From a virus (lineage: Duplodnaviria; Heunggongvirae; Uroviricota; Caudoviricetes): a DNA stretch of 6,522 nt. Of the stretch, positions 1 to 6,522 are shown piece after piece; position 1 is the first letter of the stretch, and each line of letters begins with the position of its first letter. Below the pieces are notes generated by a model. It did no database searches. It was not told where the DNA came from and saw only the letters and a program-made list of their open reading frames with translations. A program made the position numbers and the translations under genes. Location: the IMG/VR virus record IMGVR_UViG_2534681912_000007, one strand, 5' to 3'.

Positions 1-80
1 TCATATTCGCCCTGACTTTCCAGAACCATACGGACTGCCCGTTGACGGACTTCAGGGGAAAAACGAGTATTTTTAGTCAT
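1..80 (-). CDS. IS3-family transposase OrfA, N-terminal 26 codons (5' partial in window, continues past position 1)
   Basis: The reverse complement of 1..80 translates without a stop to MTKNTRFSPEVRQRAVRMVLESQGEY. A Shine-Dalgarno-like AAGAGG/CAGG lies just upstream of the ATG. This N-terminus is recalled as characteristic of the IS629/IS1203-type OrfA helix-turn-helix protein. Confidence 0.7.
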   Translation of the reverse strand, partial: MTKNTRFSPEVRQRAVRMVLESQGEY

Positions 81-134
81 CCTGTTTACCTCTTTCTCAG
101 GAAGTTTAGTCTCCAGGATTCCCGGGGCGGTTCA
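1..134 (-). mobile_element. Left end of an IS3-family insertion sequence (IS629/IS1203/IS3411-like), partial; continues beyond window start
   Basis: Read on the minus strand from 134, the sequence is TGAACCGCCCCGGGAATCCTGGAGACTAAACTTCCTGAGAAAGAGGTAAACAGG followed by ATG at 80. It has the TG... terminus typical of IS3-family inverted repeats and matches my recollection of the IS629-group left end. The ORF that follows encodes MTKNTRFSPEVRQRAVRMVLESQGEY, recalled as the OrfA N-terminus of this IS group. Exact element identity needs an ISfinder comparison. Confidence 0.7.
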
Positions 135-330
135 GATATTTATTCCATGCCTCCAGCAACGATCTTTCTTCCTCCGTTGCGATTTCCAGATCTACAGCAT
201 CCTGCAGTGGCGCAATATACTCACTGAATTCCTGGATGTAGAACTGTGTGGTGACGGTCTTCCAGCCATTCGGCTCCTGCTGTATCGAAGCATACCAGGC
301 TATTTCAATATCGCTATGCTGCGGCAGCAT
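106..330 (-). pseudogene. Remnant of a second tail fibre assembly gene (tfa-like C-terminal domain), 5'-truncated and 3'-interrupted by the IS insertion
   Basis: The 74-aa ORF contains [29 protein letters not shown], closely matching the C-terminal part of the intact Tfa at 1110..1694 ([29 protein letters not shown]). There is an in-frame stop immediately upstream of the Met at 331..333. The IS terminus begins inside codon 66 at position 134, so the last 8 residues (NRPGNPGD) and the stop at 106..108 are encoded by IS sequence. Confidence 0.7.
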
Positions 331-338
331 TTAACCCC

Positions 339-367
339 TTGTAATTCATCGCCATAATTGATTTAAT
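339..367 (+). promoter_or_regulatory. Putative sigma70 promoter for the methyltransferase gene (-35 TTGTAA 339..344, 17-bp spacer, extended -10 TGaTTTAAT 359..367)
   Basis: Hexamer matches to consensus read directly from the sequence, in the AT-rich region upstream of the + strand ORF. An alternative pair is TTGATT 358..363 with TATAAC 381..386. Prediction only. Confidence 0.25.
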
Positions 368-386
368 TCACAAATAAAACTATAAC

Positions 387-1055
387 ATGGTGAAATCAAT
401 GAAAAAAAACACAGATGATGGGGCTAAAATTTACACACCACTTACCCTAAAGCTTTATGACTGGTGGGTTTTGGGAGTATCAAATCGGCTTGCATGGGGA
501 TGTCCTACAAAGGAACACCTTCTTCCACACTTTCTGGAACATGTAGGTAACAACCATCTGGATATTGGTGTTGGAACTGGGTTTTACCTTACTCACGTAC
601 CTGAGAGTAGTCTGATATCTTTAATGGATTTGAACGAAGCTAGCCTGAACGCGGCATCTACAAGGGCTGGGGAATCAAAAATTAAACATAAAATTAGCCA
701 TGATGTTTTTGAACCTTATCCCGCGGCGTTACATGGTCAATTTGATTCCATTTCCATGTTTTACCTTCTTCACTGCCTGCCTGGAAATATATCTACAAAA
801 AGCTGTGTAATACGCAATGCGGCGCAGGCCTTAACTGACGATGGAACTCTATACGGAGCCACAATTCTTGGCGATGGAGTTGTGCACAATAGCTTCGGTC
901 AAAAACTGATGCGCATTTACAATCAGAAAGGCATCTTTTCAAACACAAAAGATTCCGAAGAAGGCTTAACACATATACTCTCAGAGCATTTCGAGAATGT
1001 TAAAACCAAGGTTCAAGGTACTGTAGTAATGTTTTCCGCTTCAGGGAAAAAATAG
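387..1055 (+). CDS. Class I (Rossmann-fold) SAM-dependent methyltransferase, substrate unknown; moron-like cargo gene
   Basis: 222-aa ORF convergent to tfa. Motif I LDIGVGTG at aa 58-65, acidic post-I residue in LISLMDL (D81), motif II FDSISMFYLLHCLP at aa 119-132 and motif III LTDDGTLYGATIL at aa 149-161 give the canonical MTase order. No DNA-MTase catalytic motifs ((D/N/S)PP(Y/F) or PCQ) are present. The start may instead be ATG 399 (MKKNTDD...), which has GGTGA at 389..393 as a Shine-Dalgarno with 5-nt spacing. The gene is visibly AT-richer than the flanking tail genes. Confidence 0.75.
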   Translation: MVKSMKKNTDDGAKIYTPLTLKLYDWWVLGVSNRLAWGCPTKEHLLPHFLEHVGNNHLDIGVGTGFYLTHVPESSLISLMDLNEASLNAASTRAGESKIKHKISHDVFEPYPAALHGQFDSISMFYLLHCLPGNISTKSCVIRNAAQALTDDGTLYGATILGDGVVHNSFGQKLMRIYNQKGIFSNTKDSEEGLTHILSEHFENVKTKVQGTVVMFSASGKK

Positions 1056-1062
1056 CATCCAA

Positions 1063-1095
1063 CCGCAGCACGTTCTTGCTTAAGACGTGCTGCGG
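1063..1095. terminator. Perfect 11-bp inverted repeat (CCGCAGCACGT / ACGTGCTGCGG) with 11-nt loop between the convergent methyltransferase and tfa genes; possible bidirectional terminator
   Basis: Stem arms 1063..1073 and 1085..1095 are exact reverse complements. It lies 8 nt after the methyltransferase stop (1053..1055) and 15 nt after the tfa stop (1110..1112). On the minus strand the stem is followed by UUGGAUGCUAUUUUUU; on the plus strand there is no U-tract. Confidence 0.4.
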
Positions 1096-1109
1096 CATAA
1101 TCCCAATGA

Positions 1110-1694
1110 TTACTCCCTGACAGGGTTCGTAGGCCACTCAATATCAGGTGCAGTTGATGTATCAACACGGTTCAGCAACACCCGATACTTTTTCCAGGCT
1201 TCCAGCAATGAGGTTTCTTCCTCCGTTGCAATTTCCAGATCTGCAGCATCCTGAAGCGGCGCAATATGCTCACTGGCTACCTGCATCAGGTTGTTTTTTG
1301 TTTCTTCCGCCTCCCGGATCCGGAACAGTTTTTCTGCTTCCGTATCCTTCACCCAGGCTGTGCCGTTCCACTTCTGAAACTCCCCTTCCGGCGATAACCA
1401 GGTAACATTTTCCGGTAACGGACCGAGTTCAGAAATAAATAACTCGTCCCCTGACGCTACGTCATAAACCGTTTTCCCCCGATGGTCTTCAACGAGATGC
1501 CACGATGCCTCATCACTGTTGAAAACAGCCACAAAGCCAGCAGGAATATCTGGTGGTGCAATATCGGTACTGTTTGCTGGCAGACCTGTATGAGGCGGAA
1601 TATATGCGTCACCTTCACCAATAAATTCATTAGTTCCGGCCAGCAGATTATAAATTTTTATGGTCCGTGCTTGTTCACTCATTCTGAATGCCAT
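1110..1694 (-). CDS. tfa: Tail fibre assembly protein Tfa (lambda Tfa homologue, 194 aa)
   Basis: [78 protein letters not shown]... is near-identical over its full length to lambda Tfa as I recall it, with the same 194-aa length. The start ATG (1692..1694) overlaps the stf stop TAA (1694..1696) by 1 nt. Confidence 0.95.
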
Positions 1695-4600
1695 TATGCA
1701 AGCCTCACAATATAGTTAAATGCGATGTTTTTGACGGTGTTTTCCGCGTTACCCGCAGCGTTAACGGTGATGGTGTGTCCATGTGAACCAATCGCAACGG
1801 AGTGCGTATGCGCACCAATACCTACAGTATGTGCATGTGCGCCAGAACTTGCTGCAGTACCAGACAGCGAGTGGGTATGAGCACCTGCTGACTGTGTCTG
1901 AATACGTTGATAATACGATCTATAGGAAGAAGTCTCCGGGCTTACTTGATACTGTGAATTCTGGACATAAGTGAACCCACCGCCATCATAAAATGCTAAC
2001 GCAGAACCGCCGCCTCCTGGCCAACGAATACCATTACCATGAGTATGAACACCGGCAGACCCCGTAGAGCCACTCAGACTGTGCGTATGCGCCCCGGTGT
2101 TATTCGTGGATTTAGTGCCGTAATCAAACGACGATGTGGTTTTCGTCCCCAAATCCGTACTGGATGCGCTGGCGCTGTGGGTGTGCGATTTTATGCCGTC
2201 CTGTTCCTGAGACAATACGGCCCGGCCACTGGCGGGTTTGCCCTTGATTGTCCAGCCGCGCATATCTGGAATAACACCTGAAGGATAGGCAATAGCCAGT
2301 TTCGGATATGCTGCCTTATCAAACGTCTGCCCCTGCATGATTGCATAACCTGCAGGTGGTGTATCTGATGGCCACGGCAGCGGAACACCTGGCGGAAACG
2401 CTTCAATATTTGCCGAGCCGTCAAATTTTACGCCGTTAATTGTCCTTGCAGTTTGCAATTTGGTTGCTGTGCTTGCATTACCCGATAAAGATCCAGTGAT
2501 ACCACCACTCGCGTTTAATTTAGTTGCAATTGTAACATTGCCAGTATGGTTACTAATTATAAACGGCCTTAAGCTATTGTGCGTACCAAGACTGTTACCC
2601 GAATCTGTCAACATAAAATATGTGTTTGATCCATCATTTCGGATAAAGAATCCATAGTTGCCATAGGCAATACGCAGACCATTTGCTGACCTTGAAATAA
2701 CCTCACCAGCAGCAGTTAAACCACCTGAAAGAGTCCCTCCAGTTAATGCCAATGCCCCAATATTTGAAGGGGTCAATGTGATATTTGCACTACCATCAAA
2801 TGACACACCGTTAATCGTTCTGGCTGCCTGAAGTTTCGTGGCGGTCGCAGCATTACCTGTAGTGTTTTGATTACCGGTAGCGTTGACTCCAGGCAAGTTG
2901 ATATCTGCCGATCCATCAAATGCCACGCCCCCAATCTTACGTGCTGTCTTGATCTTGGTCGCAGTATCTGCGTTTCCGGTCAAATTACCAGTAACACTAC
3001 CACCAACTTTTAGTCCATTACCGATGGACACCAACCCTGATCTTAAGTTTATAGAGAATGGTCTTAATGAACCGATGTCTCCATTTTCCCCCTCCCCTTC
3101 ATTAGTCGGAATAAGATGAAGATGATCTTCGGAACGCCTAAAAATAAGGCCAAAGGCTTGGTTGAATATTCGAAGAGCATTTATCGTGCTGATTTTTAAC
3201 TGCCCTCCCATTGTGTCGCCAGTTTTTTGAACTGAACTATCTTTAACAGTTTTAACTGCCTTTGGCGTTGCCGCCAGCTTTTCACTGGTGCTGTTTGTTG
3301 CACTGCTGAGCTGTACTATCCCCTTTTTCGTCGTGCTCGCATCCTCCAGCGCCACGGCGGATGCAATATCCTCTGCCCGTTTTGCTGCTGTCTCGGCGCG
3401 CGTTGCCGCGGATTCAGCAGCAACTTTGCTCTGAGATGCAGCCGTCGCACTGCCTGCCGCCTCTGATGCTTTCGTTGTTGCTGTCGTGGCACTACCTTTC
3501 GCTGCTGACGCTTGTCTGGTCGCCTCATCTTTTGAAGCAGACGCAGATGATGCCGATGACGCCGCTGAACTGGCTGACGATGCGGCTGCCGCCTTAGAGG
3601 AAGCAGCATTGTCTGCTGAAGTCTTTGCATTTGTTTCAGAGGTTTTTGCTGCAGAAGCAGACCTCGCTGCTGCAGTGGCTTGCTCAGTGGCTTTGCCAGC
3701 CTTCGTTGTGGCTGTTGAAGCGGATGATGCGGCGCTTTCTGCCGATTTTCCGGCGGCGGTGGCACTGGCTGAGGCCTGCCCGGCACTTGTTGACGCGGCA
3801 CTGGCAGATAATGCAGCCGCTGTTTTTGAACCTGCCGCAGCTGAGGCGCTCTGTCCCGCTGCTGTTTCAGAAGACTTAGCGTTCGTCTCGGACGTTTTTG
3901 CCGCCTTCGCGGAATTTCCTGCCGCCGTTGCCGAGGAAGCTGCACTACTGGCACTTGATGATGCATTCGTTTCTGAAGATTTCGCTGCCTCTTTTGAGGC
4001 CGCCGCACCCCGTGCCGAGGTGGCAGCTTCTGACGCCTTCGTGGTCGCTGTGGATGCAGAAGTGGCTGCCGATTTTTGTGATGCTGCGGCATTCGTTTCT
4101 GACGTTTTCGCGGCACTGGCGCTGGTAGCTGCCGCGCTTTTTGATGACTCTGCAGCAGCAGCACTTTTTGCTGCTTCACGGGCCTTTGTCGATGCCGTTC
4201 CTGCGCTGGAAGACGCTGACTGAGCCGACGACGCGGCCTGTCCGGCTGACGTGCTGGCGGCACGTGCTGAGGCTGCAGCATCGGTTGCATGAGTTGCCGC
4301 CTCGCTGGCTGATGCACTGGCATCGCTGGCTGATTTTTTCGCGGCTGCCGTATTCTGTGCAACCGCGGAGGCGTTACGTGACACCTCTTCCACCATCTGC
4401 TCAAAGCGGCGCAGTGCCTCCGGTCGGACATCATCCTCCGTCATGGCACCGAGAAAATCATTCAGCGTACCTGGTCTGGAACCTTCATAGACGGTAATGG
4501 TCCCGGCATGTGAAGGCGGAAAACCTTCAACCAGCAGGGTGACGCTGTACTGGCCATGCTCAACATCCATGCTGTAACGTCCGGCTTCATCCGGATTTTC

Positions 4601-4720
4601 AGAGGCCACCGTGTTCACCACCACCGTGCTGCTGGTTCGTCTGGCCTTCAGCACAATGGTGCAGTTCTGTACTGGTTTTCCTGTGCCATCTTTAAGCACG
4701 CCAGAAATTTTTACTGTCAT
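1694..4720 (-). CDS. stf: Side tail fibre protein Stf (lambda Stf/StfR family), 1008 aa, mosaic
   Basis: N-terminus [22 protein letters not shown]... and C-terminus ...[31 protein letters not shown] match lambda Stf as recalled. It has a long Ala/Ser/Thr-rich segment with KTSETNA-type repeats, three GNAxTATK(L/I)xxAR(K/T)I(G/N)GVxFDGSA(D/N)I units and C-terminal HxH repeats. A GGTGG Shine-Dalgarno lies 6 nt upstream of the ATG at 4720. Confidence 0.95.
1766..2188 (-). other. C-terminal His-x-His repeat region of Stf (SHTHS, GAHTHS, GVHTHG, GAHTHS, GAHAHT, GAHTHS, SHGHT); putative metal-coordinating distal tip
   Basis: Seven HxH motifs in aa ~845-985, read directly from the translation. The same motif type coordinates metal ions in the T4 gp37 long tail fibre tip (established knowledge). 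Confidence 0.6.
2408..3181 (-). repeat. Internal tandem duplication of a ~95-aa shaft module within Stf (unit A aa 514-608 = nt 2897..3181; unit B aa 677-771 = nt 2408..2692), with an extra fibre-repeat unit between them
   Basis: [29 protein letters not shown]...[16 protein letters not shown]...[31 protein letters not shown] aligns without gaps to [29 protein letters not shown]...[16 protein letters not shown]...[31 protein letters not shown]. Shared positions include LRI, SLRPF, GNAxTATK, TAR and FDGSA. A third [26 protein letters not shown] unit lies at aa 621-647. Confidence 0.6.
3326..4378 (-). repeat. Coding low-complexity Ala/Ser/Thr-rich repeat region of Stf (aa ~115-465) with diverged tandem repeats at DNA level
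   Basis: The protein is dominated by A, S, T, K, E with recurring [14 protein letters not shown] and [10 protein letters not shown] motifs. Recurring nucleotide motifs such as gcattcgtttctga(a/c)g(a/t)tttcgc appear at ~3961 and ~4089, with variants at ~3618 and ~3877. The GC-rich repetitive composition creates long spurious ORFs in other frames. Confidence 0.8.
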
Positions 4721-4734
4721 ACTTTTCCACCAAT

Positions 4735-4767
4735 AAAAAAAGCCCGCAGCAGTGACGCCACGGGCTT
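4735..4767 (-). terminator. Intrinsic terminator after lom (minus strand), immediately upstream of the stf ribosome-binding site
   Basis: Minus-strand RNA would read AAGCCCGUGGCGUCACUGCUGCGGGCUUUUUUUUAUUGG. A GC-rich stem (GCCCGUGG pairing with CUGCGGGC, including G-U wobbles) is followed by a U8 run, which corresponds to the A-run at 4735..4741 on the plus strand. Confidence 0.6.
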
Positions 4768-4871
4768 CAGGACAGTGTAACTTTACGTTTCCTCAAACGC
4801 AGTTCACCCCATAAGGTGGATGAACCTGCGTATCATAACAATATTTACAGAAGATAAATCGGCGTCTGTTG

Positions 4872-5471
4872 TCAGAAACGGTATCCGATACCAACAATAA
4901 ATGCATCCGTTCGCCAGTCGCCACTACCGGAACCTTCATAAGCAAGGTCAATGGTTACGGATTCGGTCGGGTTAAACTGCACGCCAGCCCCCCACGCCAG
5001 AGACGTGTTGCTGTGGCGACCGTCATCACTTCCGGTCAGCACATCGTGCGTTTTCCCCTTGTTGTCAGTTACGCGGAGATAATCCCCGGAGAAAGTCGAC
5101 ACACGGCTGTAAGCCACACCCACCATCGCATAAGCACTGAACCATTCATTCACGCGTACAGACGGCCCCGCCATCACGCTGAACCAGCGGTTACGCACGG
5201 AATCTTCATGCCAGCGGGTATCGCTGTAATGCGTTTTTTGCTCATCCTCAGCATTGGCATAACTGAAGGACGTAACCAGCCCCAGCGCGTCCGTAAACTC
5301 ATAACGGTATTTCACGTTAATCCCCTTCAGATCATCACTGCCGGGAACATCAGTACGGGCATGAAGATACCCCGCGCTCAGTGTGGACTGATGCTCAGAC
5401 GCCCACGCAGGCGCACCAGAGACAAACAGACAGACGACTGCGGACAAAATAACAGCACAAAATTTACGCAT
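4872..5471 (-). CDS. lom: Lom outer membrane protein (Ail/Lom family), 199 aa, with Sec signal peptide
   Basis: MRKFCAVILSAVVCLFVSGAPAWA|SEHQSTLSAGYLHA...WHEDSVRNRWFSVMAGPSVRVNEWFSAYAM...GIGYRF closely matches lambda Lom as recalled. It has an N-terminal hydrophobic signal with an AWA cleavage motif and a C-terminal aromatic residue typical of beta-barrel outer membrane proteins. A GAGAGGT Shine-Dalgarno precedes the ATG at 5471. Confidence 0.95.
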   Translation of the reverse strand: MRKFCAVILSAVVCLFVSGAPAWASEHQSTLSAGYLHARTDVPGSDDLKGINVKYRYEFTDALGLVTSFSYANAEDEQKTHYSDTRWHEDSVRNRWFSVMAGPSVRVNEWFSAYAMVGVAYSRVSTFSGDYLRVTDNKGKTHDVLTGSDDGRHSNTSLAWGAGVQFNPTESVTIDLAYEGSGSGDWRTDAFIVGIGYRF

Positions 5472-5493: not shown

Positions 5494-5520
5494 ATAAAAA
5501 AGGCGCCATTTCTGACGCCC
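5494..5520 (-). terminator. Intrinsic terminator after J (minus strand), between J and lom
   Basis: Minus-strand RNA would read GGGCGUCAGAAAUGGCGCCUUUUUUUAUUG. The stem GGCGUC/GGCGCC includes one G-U pair, has a 6-nt loop and is followed by a U-run. It lies 20-45 nt downstream of the J stop at 5539..5541. Confidence 0.6.
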
Positions 5521-5538: not shown

Positions 5539-6522
5539 TCAGCTGATACTGATGCCTGCGGTGGCTTTCTTCATCACCACAACCAGCAAATCGCTGATAC
5601 TTGCTGTGGGATACCAGCCATTTACCCACCATGCTGATACAGAAAACTCCAGCGTCATGTCGCCGCGACCAGCAGGCATATCAATAACACCACTGTAAAT
5701 CAGCGTATTATCCAGCGCGGTACGGTTATAAATTTCAGCACCGTTTTTCCGTACTATCAGGCGGCATGACGAATAAATATCGTTATTCTCCCGCTCATGT
5801 TTAGCGCCGCTGAATGCCACCGCCGGAATAACAATTTGCCTGTCAAAAGGCTGATCGTCATAAATCCTGACGGTAATGGTCCCTGATGGCCACCGCTCCG
5901 GTGCCCGGGAGTCCCGCGGAAAAGCCTTACCCACTGTTTTGACTATATCGCCTTCAATCTGGTTGGCTGACAGTTTCCCCTTAATCTGACAGTTCTCATT
6001 AATTGTGACATTGTTGAGCGTCCCGGCGTTCGCATTCACACTGCCACTGATATCTGCATTTTTAGCGGTCAGTTTTCCGTCCGGTGTCAGGGAAAATGCC
6101 GGAGGATTACCGCCGCTGGTAATGGTGGGAGCCGTCAGGCGTTTCAGGAACACGTCGTTCATGAATATCTGATCGCCCTGACCAACAAACATCGGCTTTG
6201 TGTTGCCATTCGCAGGATTAATCATCGCAATCCTGTCTGCCGCCAGCAGCACCTGACTCTGCATTCCTGCTGGCGTATTCTCAATACCGGCACCGATACC
6301 CGCAATATAAAGGCGTCCGTCCTGCATCTGCTGCAGCTTCACAGCCCACATGCTGTTCAGATTATTATTTGTATCAACCTGAACCTTCTGTATCTGCTGG
6401 ATTGCCGCACTCTGATTTTCCAGTTTTTTATTGACGGTCTGCGTGATTTCATTGCTGACATCCGTAATGGACGTCCTGATTTCAGCCAGGTCAGGCGCAA
6501 GCTGACCGTTATCAATCTGCGT
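5539..6522 (-). CDS. J: Tail tip host-specificity protein J (central tail fibre), C-terminal ~327 codons; 5' part lies beyond the window end
   Basis: The frame stays open from the window edge at 6522 ([161 protein letters not shown]...) to the stop at 5539. This matches the C-terminal region of lambda J as recalled, in the canonical J-lom-stf-tfa order. The Met at 6351 in the ORF track is internal, not the true start. Confidence 0.95.

Follow-up and report, generated by a model that had tools for sequence, protein, structure and literature searches.

How much of the side tail fibre of phage lambda survives in the fibre gene carried by virus record IMGVR_UViG_2534681912_000007, and how the rest of that gene was assembled, is the question raised by the 6,522-nucleotide (nt) stretch of Caudoviricetes DNA analysed here, the whole of which we refer to as the window. 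The gene in question, stf, is an intact and real open reading frame on the minus strand, and its product of 1008 amino acids (aa) is identical to the RefSeq protein of VR50, WP_000216487.1, whose label is generic ('prophage tail fiber N-terminal domain-containing protein'). The genes J, lom, stf and tfa follow each other on the minus strand in the order known from lambda, and the window holds the right end of the tail region of a lambda-like prophage. The entire window matches Escherichia coli chromosomes, and in VR50 the same prophage is flanked by a cut ompW and by the trpA-yciGFE region. In full length and at an identity of at least 99%, stf was found in 423 of 5426 complete E. coli genomes, meaning that about 8% of them carry this allele. 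We consider it highly probable, as a single judgement, that stf encodes the side tail fibre of a lambda-like E. coli prophage, that this prophage is integrated at ompW, beside the trp operon, and that the gene was built from at least five blocks of differing history. The gene and its parts are the following, given in window coordinates.

1694..4720, minus strand: stf, the complete gene for the side tail fibre (1008 aa and a stop codon; open reading frame list; identical to WP_000216487.1)
4409..4720, minus strand: N-terminal virion-attachment domain, aa 1-104 (PF08400 and matches to lambda Stf structures)
3350..4408, minus strand: Ala/Ser/Thr-rich region with unbroken heptads, aa 105-457 (composition, periodicity)
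3497..3811, minus strand: 105-aa block (exactly 15 heptads) that StfR has and lambda Stf lacks, aa 304-408 (global alignments)
3251..3349, minus strand: linker, the shared joint of N-terminal halves and distal cassettes, aa 458-490 (junction comparisons)
2396..3250, minus strand: central shaft of the T4 gp34 / Mu S type, aa 491-775 (PDB sequence matches, Pfam)
2996..3223, minus strand: beta-prism-type module 1, aa 500-575 (similarity to module 2)
2897..2977, minus strand: fibre repeat 1, GNADTATK...FDGSADINL, aa 582-608 (regular expression and alignment)
2777..2857, minus strand: fibre repeat 2, GNAATATK...FDGSANITL, aa 622-648 (regular expression and alignment)
2498..2725, minus strand: beta-prism-type module 2, aa 666-741 (HMMER to Mu S 268-349 and gp34 ~1040-1105)
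2402..2482, minus strand: fibre repeat 3, GNASTATK...FDGSANIEA, aa 747-773 (regular expression and alignment)
2039..2395, minus strand: collar and outbound needle strand with HxH motifs 1-3, aa 776-894 (PF07484, 2XGF)
1880..2038, minus strand: head (distal knob) block, 53 aa, aa 895-947 (alignment to the T4 gp37 head)
1694..1879, minus strand: returning needle strand with HxH motifs 4-7 and conserved end, aa 948-1008 plus stop (HxH spacing, identity)

The evidence for such a construction comes from comparing the protein along its length with lambda Stf (774 aa, Ur-lambda-type record) and with StfR of the K-12 Rac prophage (1120 aa, b1372), both taken from annotated records. Because BLASTP gave shifted alignments of the Ala-rich part against both references, global alignment was used instead, with the following identities.

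aa 1-104: 86.5% to lambda Stf, 89.4% to StfR
aa 105-303: 81.4% to lambda Stf, 93.0% to StfR
aa 304-408: 0% to lambda Stf (all gap), 91.4% to StfR
aa 409-490: 84.1% to lambda Stf, 91.5% to StfR
aa 491-665: 16.6% to lambda Stf, 20.6% to StfR
aa 666-775: 12.7% to lambda Stf, 49.1% to StfR
aa 776-894: 85.7% to lambda Stf, 89.9% to StfR
aa 895-947: 20.8% to lambda Stf, 24.5% to StfR
aa 948-1008: 90.2% to lambda Stf, 98.4% to StfR

The DNA follows the same pattern, with identity to stfR of 88.8% over gene nt 1-1470, 86.9% over nt 2344-2657 and 91.4% over nt 2830-3027, and no match over nt 1471-2343 or nt 2658-2829; neither the centre (aa 491-775) nor aa 895-947 has a DNA match to lambda or StfR. A preliminary description of this sequence had proposed modular recombination within a lambda-like fibre, and the abrupt changes of identity, located at the same junctions in every comparison, agree with that proposal. 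The uniform divergence that would argue against mosaicism was clearly absent from the identity-along-length alignments with lambda Stf and StfR. Its figure of 1008 aa versus 774 aa for lambda Stf is confirmed, and the centre is indeed foreign to lambda (13-17% identity in a forced alignment). What it said about the two ends holds in part. The N-terminal ~490 aa do track lambda over aa 1-303 (81-87%) and aa 409-490 (84%), but they are not colinear with it, as aa 304-408 are missing there; similarly, the C-terminal ~230 aa are lambda-like over aa 776-894 (86%) and aa 948-1008 (90%), but not over aa 895-947 (21%). The extra length had been assigned entirely to an expanded central shaft, and here the description has to be amended, given that the 234 residues beyond lambda consist of 105 more in the coil, 140 more in the centre (285 versus 145 aa) and 11 fewer at the C-terminus.

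Judged from these alignments, the N-terminal half has its closest relative in Rac StfR and not in lambda Stf. The protein and StfR are colinear over aa 1-490 at 89-93% identity, the 105-aa block included, and the junction motif ATPKAVK lies at aa 490 in both, while it is found at aa 385 in lambda. StfR also shares the collar and the needle, with seven HxH motifs at identical spacing, as well as one related beta-prism module (49%, aa 666-775), but its 414-aa centre is otherwise mostly unrelated, and so is its head block of 36 aa (25%). What the protein has in common with Ur-lambda Stf is the position in the J-lom-stf-tfa series, the attachment domain, the coiled coil, the linker motif, the collar/needle scaffold and the Tfa protein (identity of 93-99% with lambda Tfa and of 95-97% with TfaR). 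Lambda Stf differs, on the other hand, in having 15 fewer heptads, an unrelated centre of 145 aa, eight HxH motifs instead of seven, and another head block, of 45 aa.

Junctions at gene nt 1469/1470 and nt ~2320-2344 recurred against StfR, O18, GN04171 and phage 204576. GN04171 shares nt 1-1469 only (97.4%) and then continues into a different distal part, and the allele of strain 203740 switches sharply at nt ~800, from ~85% (78-90% over nt 1-800) to 100%, its remainder being identical almost throughout, with dips at nt 1201-1400 (87% and 98%) and nt 2501-2600 (99%). The distal blocks moreover assort independently, with 423 genomes carrying the centre and 720 carrying the head block, so that the head must also sit on other centres. 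Individual fibres illustrate both exchanges, with this centre carrying another head in one protein (P0010) and this head placed on another centre in a second (P0026). Taken together, these comparisons show that recombination at conserved junctions exchanges the blocks.

The distal end of the protein is where the comparison with lambda matters most for host range. The Collar domain PF07484 matches aa 778-825, and aa 743-1008 align to residues 785-1026 of T4 gp37 (2XGF, the receptor-binding tip) with an E value of 1.2e-79. HxH motifs were found at aa 846, 878, 892, 948, 962, 971 and 980, spaced as in T4 and StfR. Two features of a gp37-type tip are thus present, namely a collar with an HxH needle and an adjacent gene for a chaperone of the Tfa/gp38 class (tfa, PF02413). 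In gp37, the chain runs outward along the needle, forms a head domain at the far end, and then runs back. In tips of this type, an intertwined trimer coordinates iron ions through the HxH histidines. The block located between the third and the fourth HxH motif measures 53 aa in the window, 45 in lambda, 36 in StfR and 33 in T4 gp37, and the sequences differ too. In the window, this block aligns to gp37 ~935-962, a segment containing G938, T939, V941, G943, Y949, Y953 and A955, and when counted along the alignment the T4 host-range residues fall against window aa ~897-940. Host-range mutations of T4 gp37 (G938V, T939I, V941E, G943S, Y953 and A955E) are located in the head (PMC5221442). With the T4 tip, the protein shares the collar, the seven HxH motifs at the same spacing and an identical C-terminal end, but the head block (53 versus 33 aa) is not alignable in detail and, outside the tip, the protein has no relation to gp37; a family of T4- and lambda-related tips has already been described (PMC9659904). 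The head block is common in E. coli, where 720 genomes carry it, and was found in only 2 phage records. These results show that the collar/needle scaffold was kept and that the probable receptor-contacting knob was swapped, and the receptor specificity of the head block probably differs from that of lambda Stf. Set against T4 and lambda, with their OmpC/LPS specificity, the head block has another sequence and another length.

As for the central shaft, the centre queried alone matched Mu S (5YVQ, E 7.9e-26) and T4 gp34 (5NXF/4UXE, E ~1e-17), and the whole-protein query against solved structures also returned Mu S (E 3.3e-30) and gp34 (E 1.9e-17). PF21446 matches aa 620-722 (E 1e-26), which by sequence places this region among beta-prism-in-triple-beta-helix shafts, and PF03335 is also among the Pfam domains assigned to Stf. 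The preliminary description had seen a duplicated module here, along with GNAxTATK...FDGS fibre repeats, and both are borne out by our analysis: 45 of 106 residues (42%) are identical between aa 500-607 and aa 666-772, with z = 24 against shuffles, and the repeats are three in number, starting at aa 582, 622 and 747. This figure comes from a module-versus-module alignment with shuffles, used where a BLASTP self-comparison of the centre gave the diagonal only. At the DNA level, neither Tandem Repeats Finder nor a direct-repeat search detected a duplication of the modules or the GNA repeats. Because the modules share no DNA-level repeat, a recent duplication is rejected, and the two modules make up an old and diverged pair instead of a recent expansion of the shaft.

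An AlphaFold2 monomer model of the centre, which is of low confidence (pLDDT 61.7, pTM 0.35), has the same five-strand order in both modules, and Foldseek run with this model matched only gp34 and Mu S. The gp34 fibre of T4 is a triple beta-helix punctuated by beta-prism domains, with a two-prism arrangement (PMC5537660), and module 2 falls on its P4 prism when the domain limits given in that work are applied. Module 2 is also close to Mu S 268-349 (E ~1e-25), whereas module 1, a diverged copy, matches no solved structure directly by sequence, and the shaft as a whole differs from gp34 and Mu S in being fused to a lambda-type coiled coil on one side and to a gp37-type tip on the other. Outside chromosomal prophages, four records filed as plasmids (CP088590.1, CP088669.1, NZ_CP146657.1 and NZ_CP070135.1) contain the centre with a protein identity of 96-100%, and many P1/P7-like phage-plasmids have it at about 69% identity, within the S fibre protein.

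In the N-terminal half, PF08400 (phage_tail_N) matches aa 1-134 with an E value of 5.6e-70, which assigns the protein to the Stf/StfR group, and the domain formed by aa 1-104 matches lambda Stf residues 1-94 as resolved in virion entries 9e7m/9mgh (E 3.6e-47). The region that follows, aa 105-457, contains 37% Ala and 23% Ser, and its hydrophobic positions show an autocorrelation of 0.35-0.45 at lags 7, 14, 21, 28 and 35 and a Fourier peak at 3.49 residues; it is predicted to form a long trimeric coiled coil. The 105-aa block at aa 304-408 is similar to an earlier stretch of the protein, aa 192-295 (z = 9.6), and DNA repeat searches found only short diverged repeats, located in this Ala-rich part. 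Two other fibres, P0004 and P0006, correspond to the window Stf minus 112 and 105 coil residues, that is, 16 and 15 heptads, respectively. Such differences by whole heptads suggest that fibre length may be tuned by in-register recombination between heptad repeats. In the three length classes sampled, the distance between the RNAS and ALEDA motifs was 342, 237 or 230 aa, each equal to 6 modulo 7, with insertions or deletions of 105 and 112 aa.

Between the coil and the shaft lies the linker (aa 458-490), at which Mu S residues 83-150 align. Its motif precedes the distal part in one related fibre (P0002) and is present in two copies in another (P0007). The linker motif is, to judge from such alleles, a repeat unit able to multiply, with two or three copies in some of them, O18 and P0007 being examples. 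In O18 (L005:1281-4388), nt 1394-1469 of the window gene match nt 1394-1469 of the O18 gene, in a colinear position, and also its nt 1528-1601 and 1658-1733.

The distal half of stf belongs to a longer segment, shared with prophages of another type, whose parts and left-hand boundary are the following.

135..3345, minus strand: cassette that comprises the distal part of stf (aa ~460 onward) together with tfa, the methyltransferase gene and the tfa remnant (also present in myovirus-type prophages)
1110..1694, minus strand: tfa, tail fibre assembly chaperone, 194 aa, whose start codon overlaps the stf stop (Caudo_TAP, PF02413, E 1.9e-44)
387..1055, plus strand: gene for a class I SAM-dependent methyltransferase, 222 aa (Pfam Methyltransf_12/23/25/11)
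106..330, minus strand: remnant of a second tfa, cut at nt ~135 (Caudo_TAP aa 31-67, E 1.1e-10)
80..1, minus strand, within the first 134 nt: start of an IS3-family transposase orfA (MTKNTRFSPEVRQRAVRMVLESQGEY)

Window positions 135-3329 are 99.6% identical to locus L008 over 3195 nt, and positions 135-3345 are 99.5% identical to locus L009 over 3211 nt. At the protein level, the 518-aa distal half recurs in P0002 (716 aa, 100% identity) and in P0007 (779 aa, 99%), attached there to very different N-termini; that of P0002 is P2 gpH-like (PF12571), and the joint lies at the same linker motif in both. Their contigs have P2-type baseplate genes upstream (Tail_P2_I, Baseplate_J, GpU and gpD) and the same tfa, methyltransferase gene and tfa remnant downstream. 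Compared with P2 gpH-type fibres, then, the identical 518-aa distal half, tfa, methyltransferase gene and linker joint are common to stf and the P0002 gene, while the latter has a P2-like attachment part and no coiled coil, and is placed after the P2 baseplate gene I instead of lom. An identity of 99.5-99.6% over 3.2 kb indicates that the cassette moved very recently between siphovirus-type and myovirus-type prophages. The comparisons show an exchange unit that exceeds the stf gene and consists of its distal half, tfa, the methyltransferase gene and the tfa remnant, and the linker serves as the left-hand homology for the exchange of this cassette.

In most E. coli genomes the match to the window begins at nt 135, and the 134 nt to its left are not prophage sequence. 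As the E. coli matches start at nt 135, the insertion sequence cuts the tfa remnant exactly where the cassette shared with P2-type prophages ends; the remnant is annotated in VR50 and O18 as a partial tail fibre assembly pseudogene. The methyltransferase falls in PHROG 2132, a group of unknown function, and its PDB matches are weak and to small-molecule O-methyltransferases only; the GC content is 39-43% over the methyltransferase region versus 46-61% over stf. It is tempting to speculate that the enzyme is functionally tied to the fibre and that the 3.2-kb unit is a self-contained host-range cassette, in which case the methyltransferase might modify the fibre, the receptor or the surface of the lysogen, masking the fibre's own receptor. 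We regard this as very unlikely, however, the functional link being pure conjecture.

Other explanations for stf have to be weighed against the reading of a lambda-like prophage fibre assembled from blocks. The one favoured by the preliminary description is a lambda Stf with both ends conserved, including the receptor-binding tip, and only the shaft swapped or expanded, so that specificity would remain lambda-like and reach or geometry would be altered. In agreement with it, the collar and needle strands are 86-90% identical to those of lambda, Tfa shares 93-99% of its residues with the lambda protein, and the centre shows no relation to that of lambda Stf. Nevertheless, the head block (aa 895-947) shares no more than 21% of its residues with lambda, has no DNA match there and aligns with T4 host-range residues, the same block sits on other centres in about 300 further genomes, and the N-terminus differs from lambda by 15 heptads. 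What was kept of the tip is its collar and needle scaffold, and not the 53-aa head, which differs from the 45 aa of lambda and the 36 aa of StfR, and we therefore find this explanation highly improbable. Even less credible, to the point of being close to dismissed, is that the centre was born in this lineage by a recent internal tandem duplication and not acquired as a pre-formed cassette. The two homologous modules do stand in tandem, each followed by a GNAxTATK...FDGS repeat, but they are 42% identical in protein without a detectable DNA repeat, gp34 has the same two-prism arrangement, and the two-module centre also stands on a P2-type N-terminus, with 100% identity, and on a further N-terminus of myovirus type, with 99%.

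A different possibility is that stf is a decaying remnant of a defective prophage, now functionless, and that its mosaicism is of historical interest only. A frameshift affects the tape-measure gene in VR50, insertion sequences interrupt the region in several strains, and the window itself ends in an IS3-family element. Conversely, the 3-kb open reading frame is intact and present at 99% identity or more in 423 genomes, the seven HxH motifs and the chaperone gene are intact, and other prophage types carry the distal cassette at 99.5% identity, implying a recent successful transfer; we thus consider decay unlikely. In spite of this, several points weigh against our preferred reading of stf as a block-built fibre of a lambda-like prophage. 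Owing to the VR50 tape-measure frameshift, the fibre may in some hosts belong to a defective prophage, and the near-identity over 423 genomes could stem from recent spread and not from selection. The head was assigned by aligning the sequence to T4 gp37, an alignment in which about 18 residues have to be inserted, the sole structure model is the low-confidence monomer of the centre mentioned above (pLDDT 61.7, pTM 0.35), and the trimer structure, the metal binding and the coiled coil are all predictions.

On the block-built reading, the fibre would work as follows. Block 1 would comprise the N-terminal attachment domain and an StfR-type heptad coil 15 heptads longer than lambda's, and block 2 a short conserved linker. 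Block 3 would be a gp34/Mu S-type shaft in which two diverged beta-prism modules are separated and followed by three GNAxTATK...FDGS turns, block 4 a gp37-type collar and needle with seven HxH motifs, and block 5 a 53-aa head of its own type, set between the outbound and the returning needle strands. Three chains would trimerise, aided by the adjacent Tfa chaperone, and the N-terminal domain would dock on the tail tip. As a trimeric side fibre of the Stf/StfR group, the product would be built into virions and speed up adsorption. The coil and the shaft would set the reach of the fibre, and an altered fibre length, resulting from the 15 extra heptads and the longer shaft, is plausible. The distal head block would contact a surface receptor, probably other than that of lambda Stf.

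With regard to what is already established, stf is an uncharacterised mosaic fibre of a well-known type and a case of textbook tail-fibre shuffling, and, as mosaic fibres belong to the textbook picture of modular phage evolution, no conceptual change follows from our findings. The classical papers on fibre-segment exchange are those of Haggard-Ljungquist et al. and Sandmeier et al., both from 1992. That lambda, P2, Mu, P1 and T-even phages exchange segments of their fibres is an old and well-documented observation, and for lambda stf and Rac stfR the recombination has been measured in experiments (PMC3945230). Engineered lambda Stf chimeras have been fused at lambda R393 and S528 (PMC11338833), and these points lie at or beside the natural junctions seen here, at lambda aa 385 and 529-531. 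The practical output is a residue-level block map of a common allele, whose natural junctions coincide with fusion points already used for lambda Stf chimeras. The 53-aa head block, carried by about 13% of genomes yet by almost no isolated phage, is a candidate for a new receptor-binding specificity in host-range engineering. Our results also carry a correction, in that a high identity of gp37-type C-termini does not imply a conserved receptor-binding tip. A literature search with the accession WP_000216487.1 found no paper mentioning the protein, and an exact-sequence look-up in a collection of 15 billion proteins, with and without the stop codon, gave no match, despite the RefSeq identity.

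An invertible host-range switch of the Gin/Cin/Pin kind was also considered for this locus and rejected, given that the window contains no recombinase open reading frame or domain, that the tfa remnant at 106-330 has the same orientation as tfa, and that the VR50 flank runs straight into the ompW remnant. A related allele, that of GN04171 (L006:6423-8409), does have the layout of an invertible host-range segment: after the distal part of its fibre gene come tfa, a second tfa in inverted orientation and a partial fibre gene, likewise inverted. Copies of the prophage are damaged in some strains. In SW070919 (L010:3060-7399), stf is split by an IS3-family element, and the frameshift of VR50 in the tape-measure gene of the same prophage lies at L001:17578-18388. 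Upstream of stf, the remainder of the window contains two further tail-region genes.

4872-5471, minus strand: lom (open reading frame list and Pfam)
5539-6351, minus strand: J, C-terminus of the tip protein (open reading frame list and Pfam)

Strong terminator-like hairpins were found at 4739-4768 on the minus strand, between lom and stf, where a 13-bp stem is followed by a run of T, and at 5501-5520 on the minus strand, after J and upstream of lom. Being pattern matches, these hairpins on either side of lom would fit lom as an independently transcribed insert ('moron') within the late operon.

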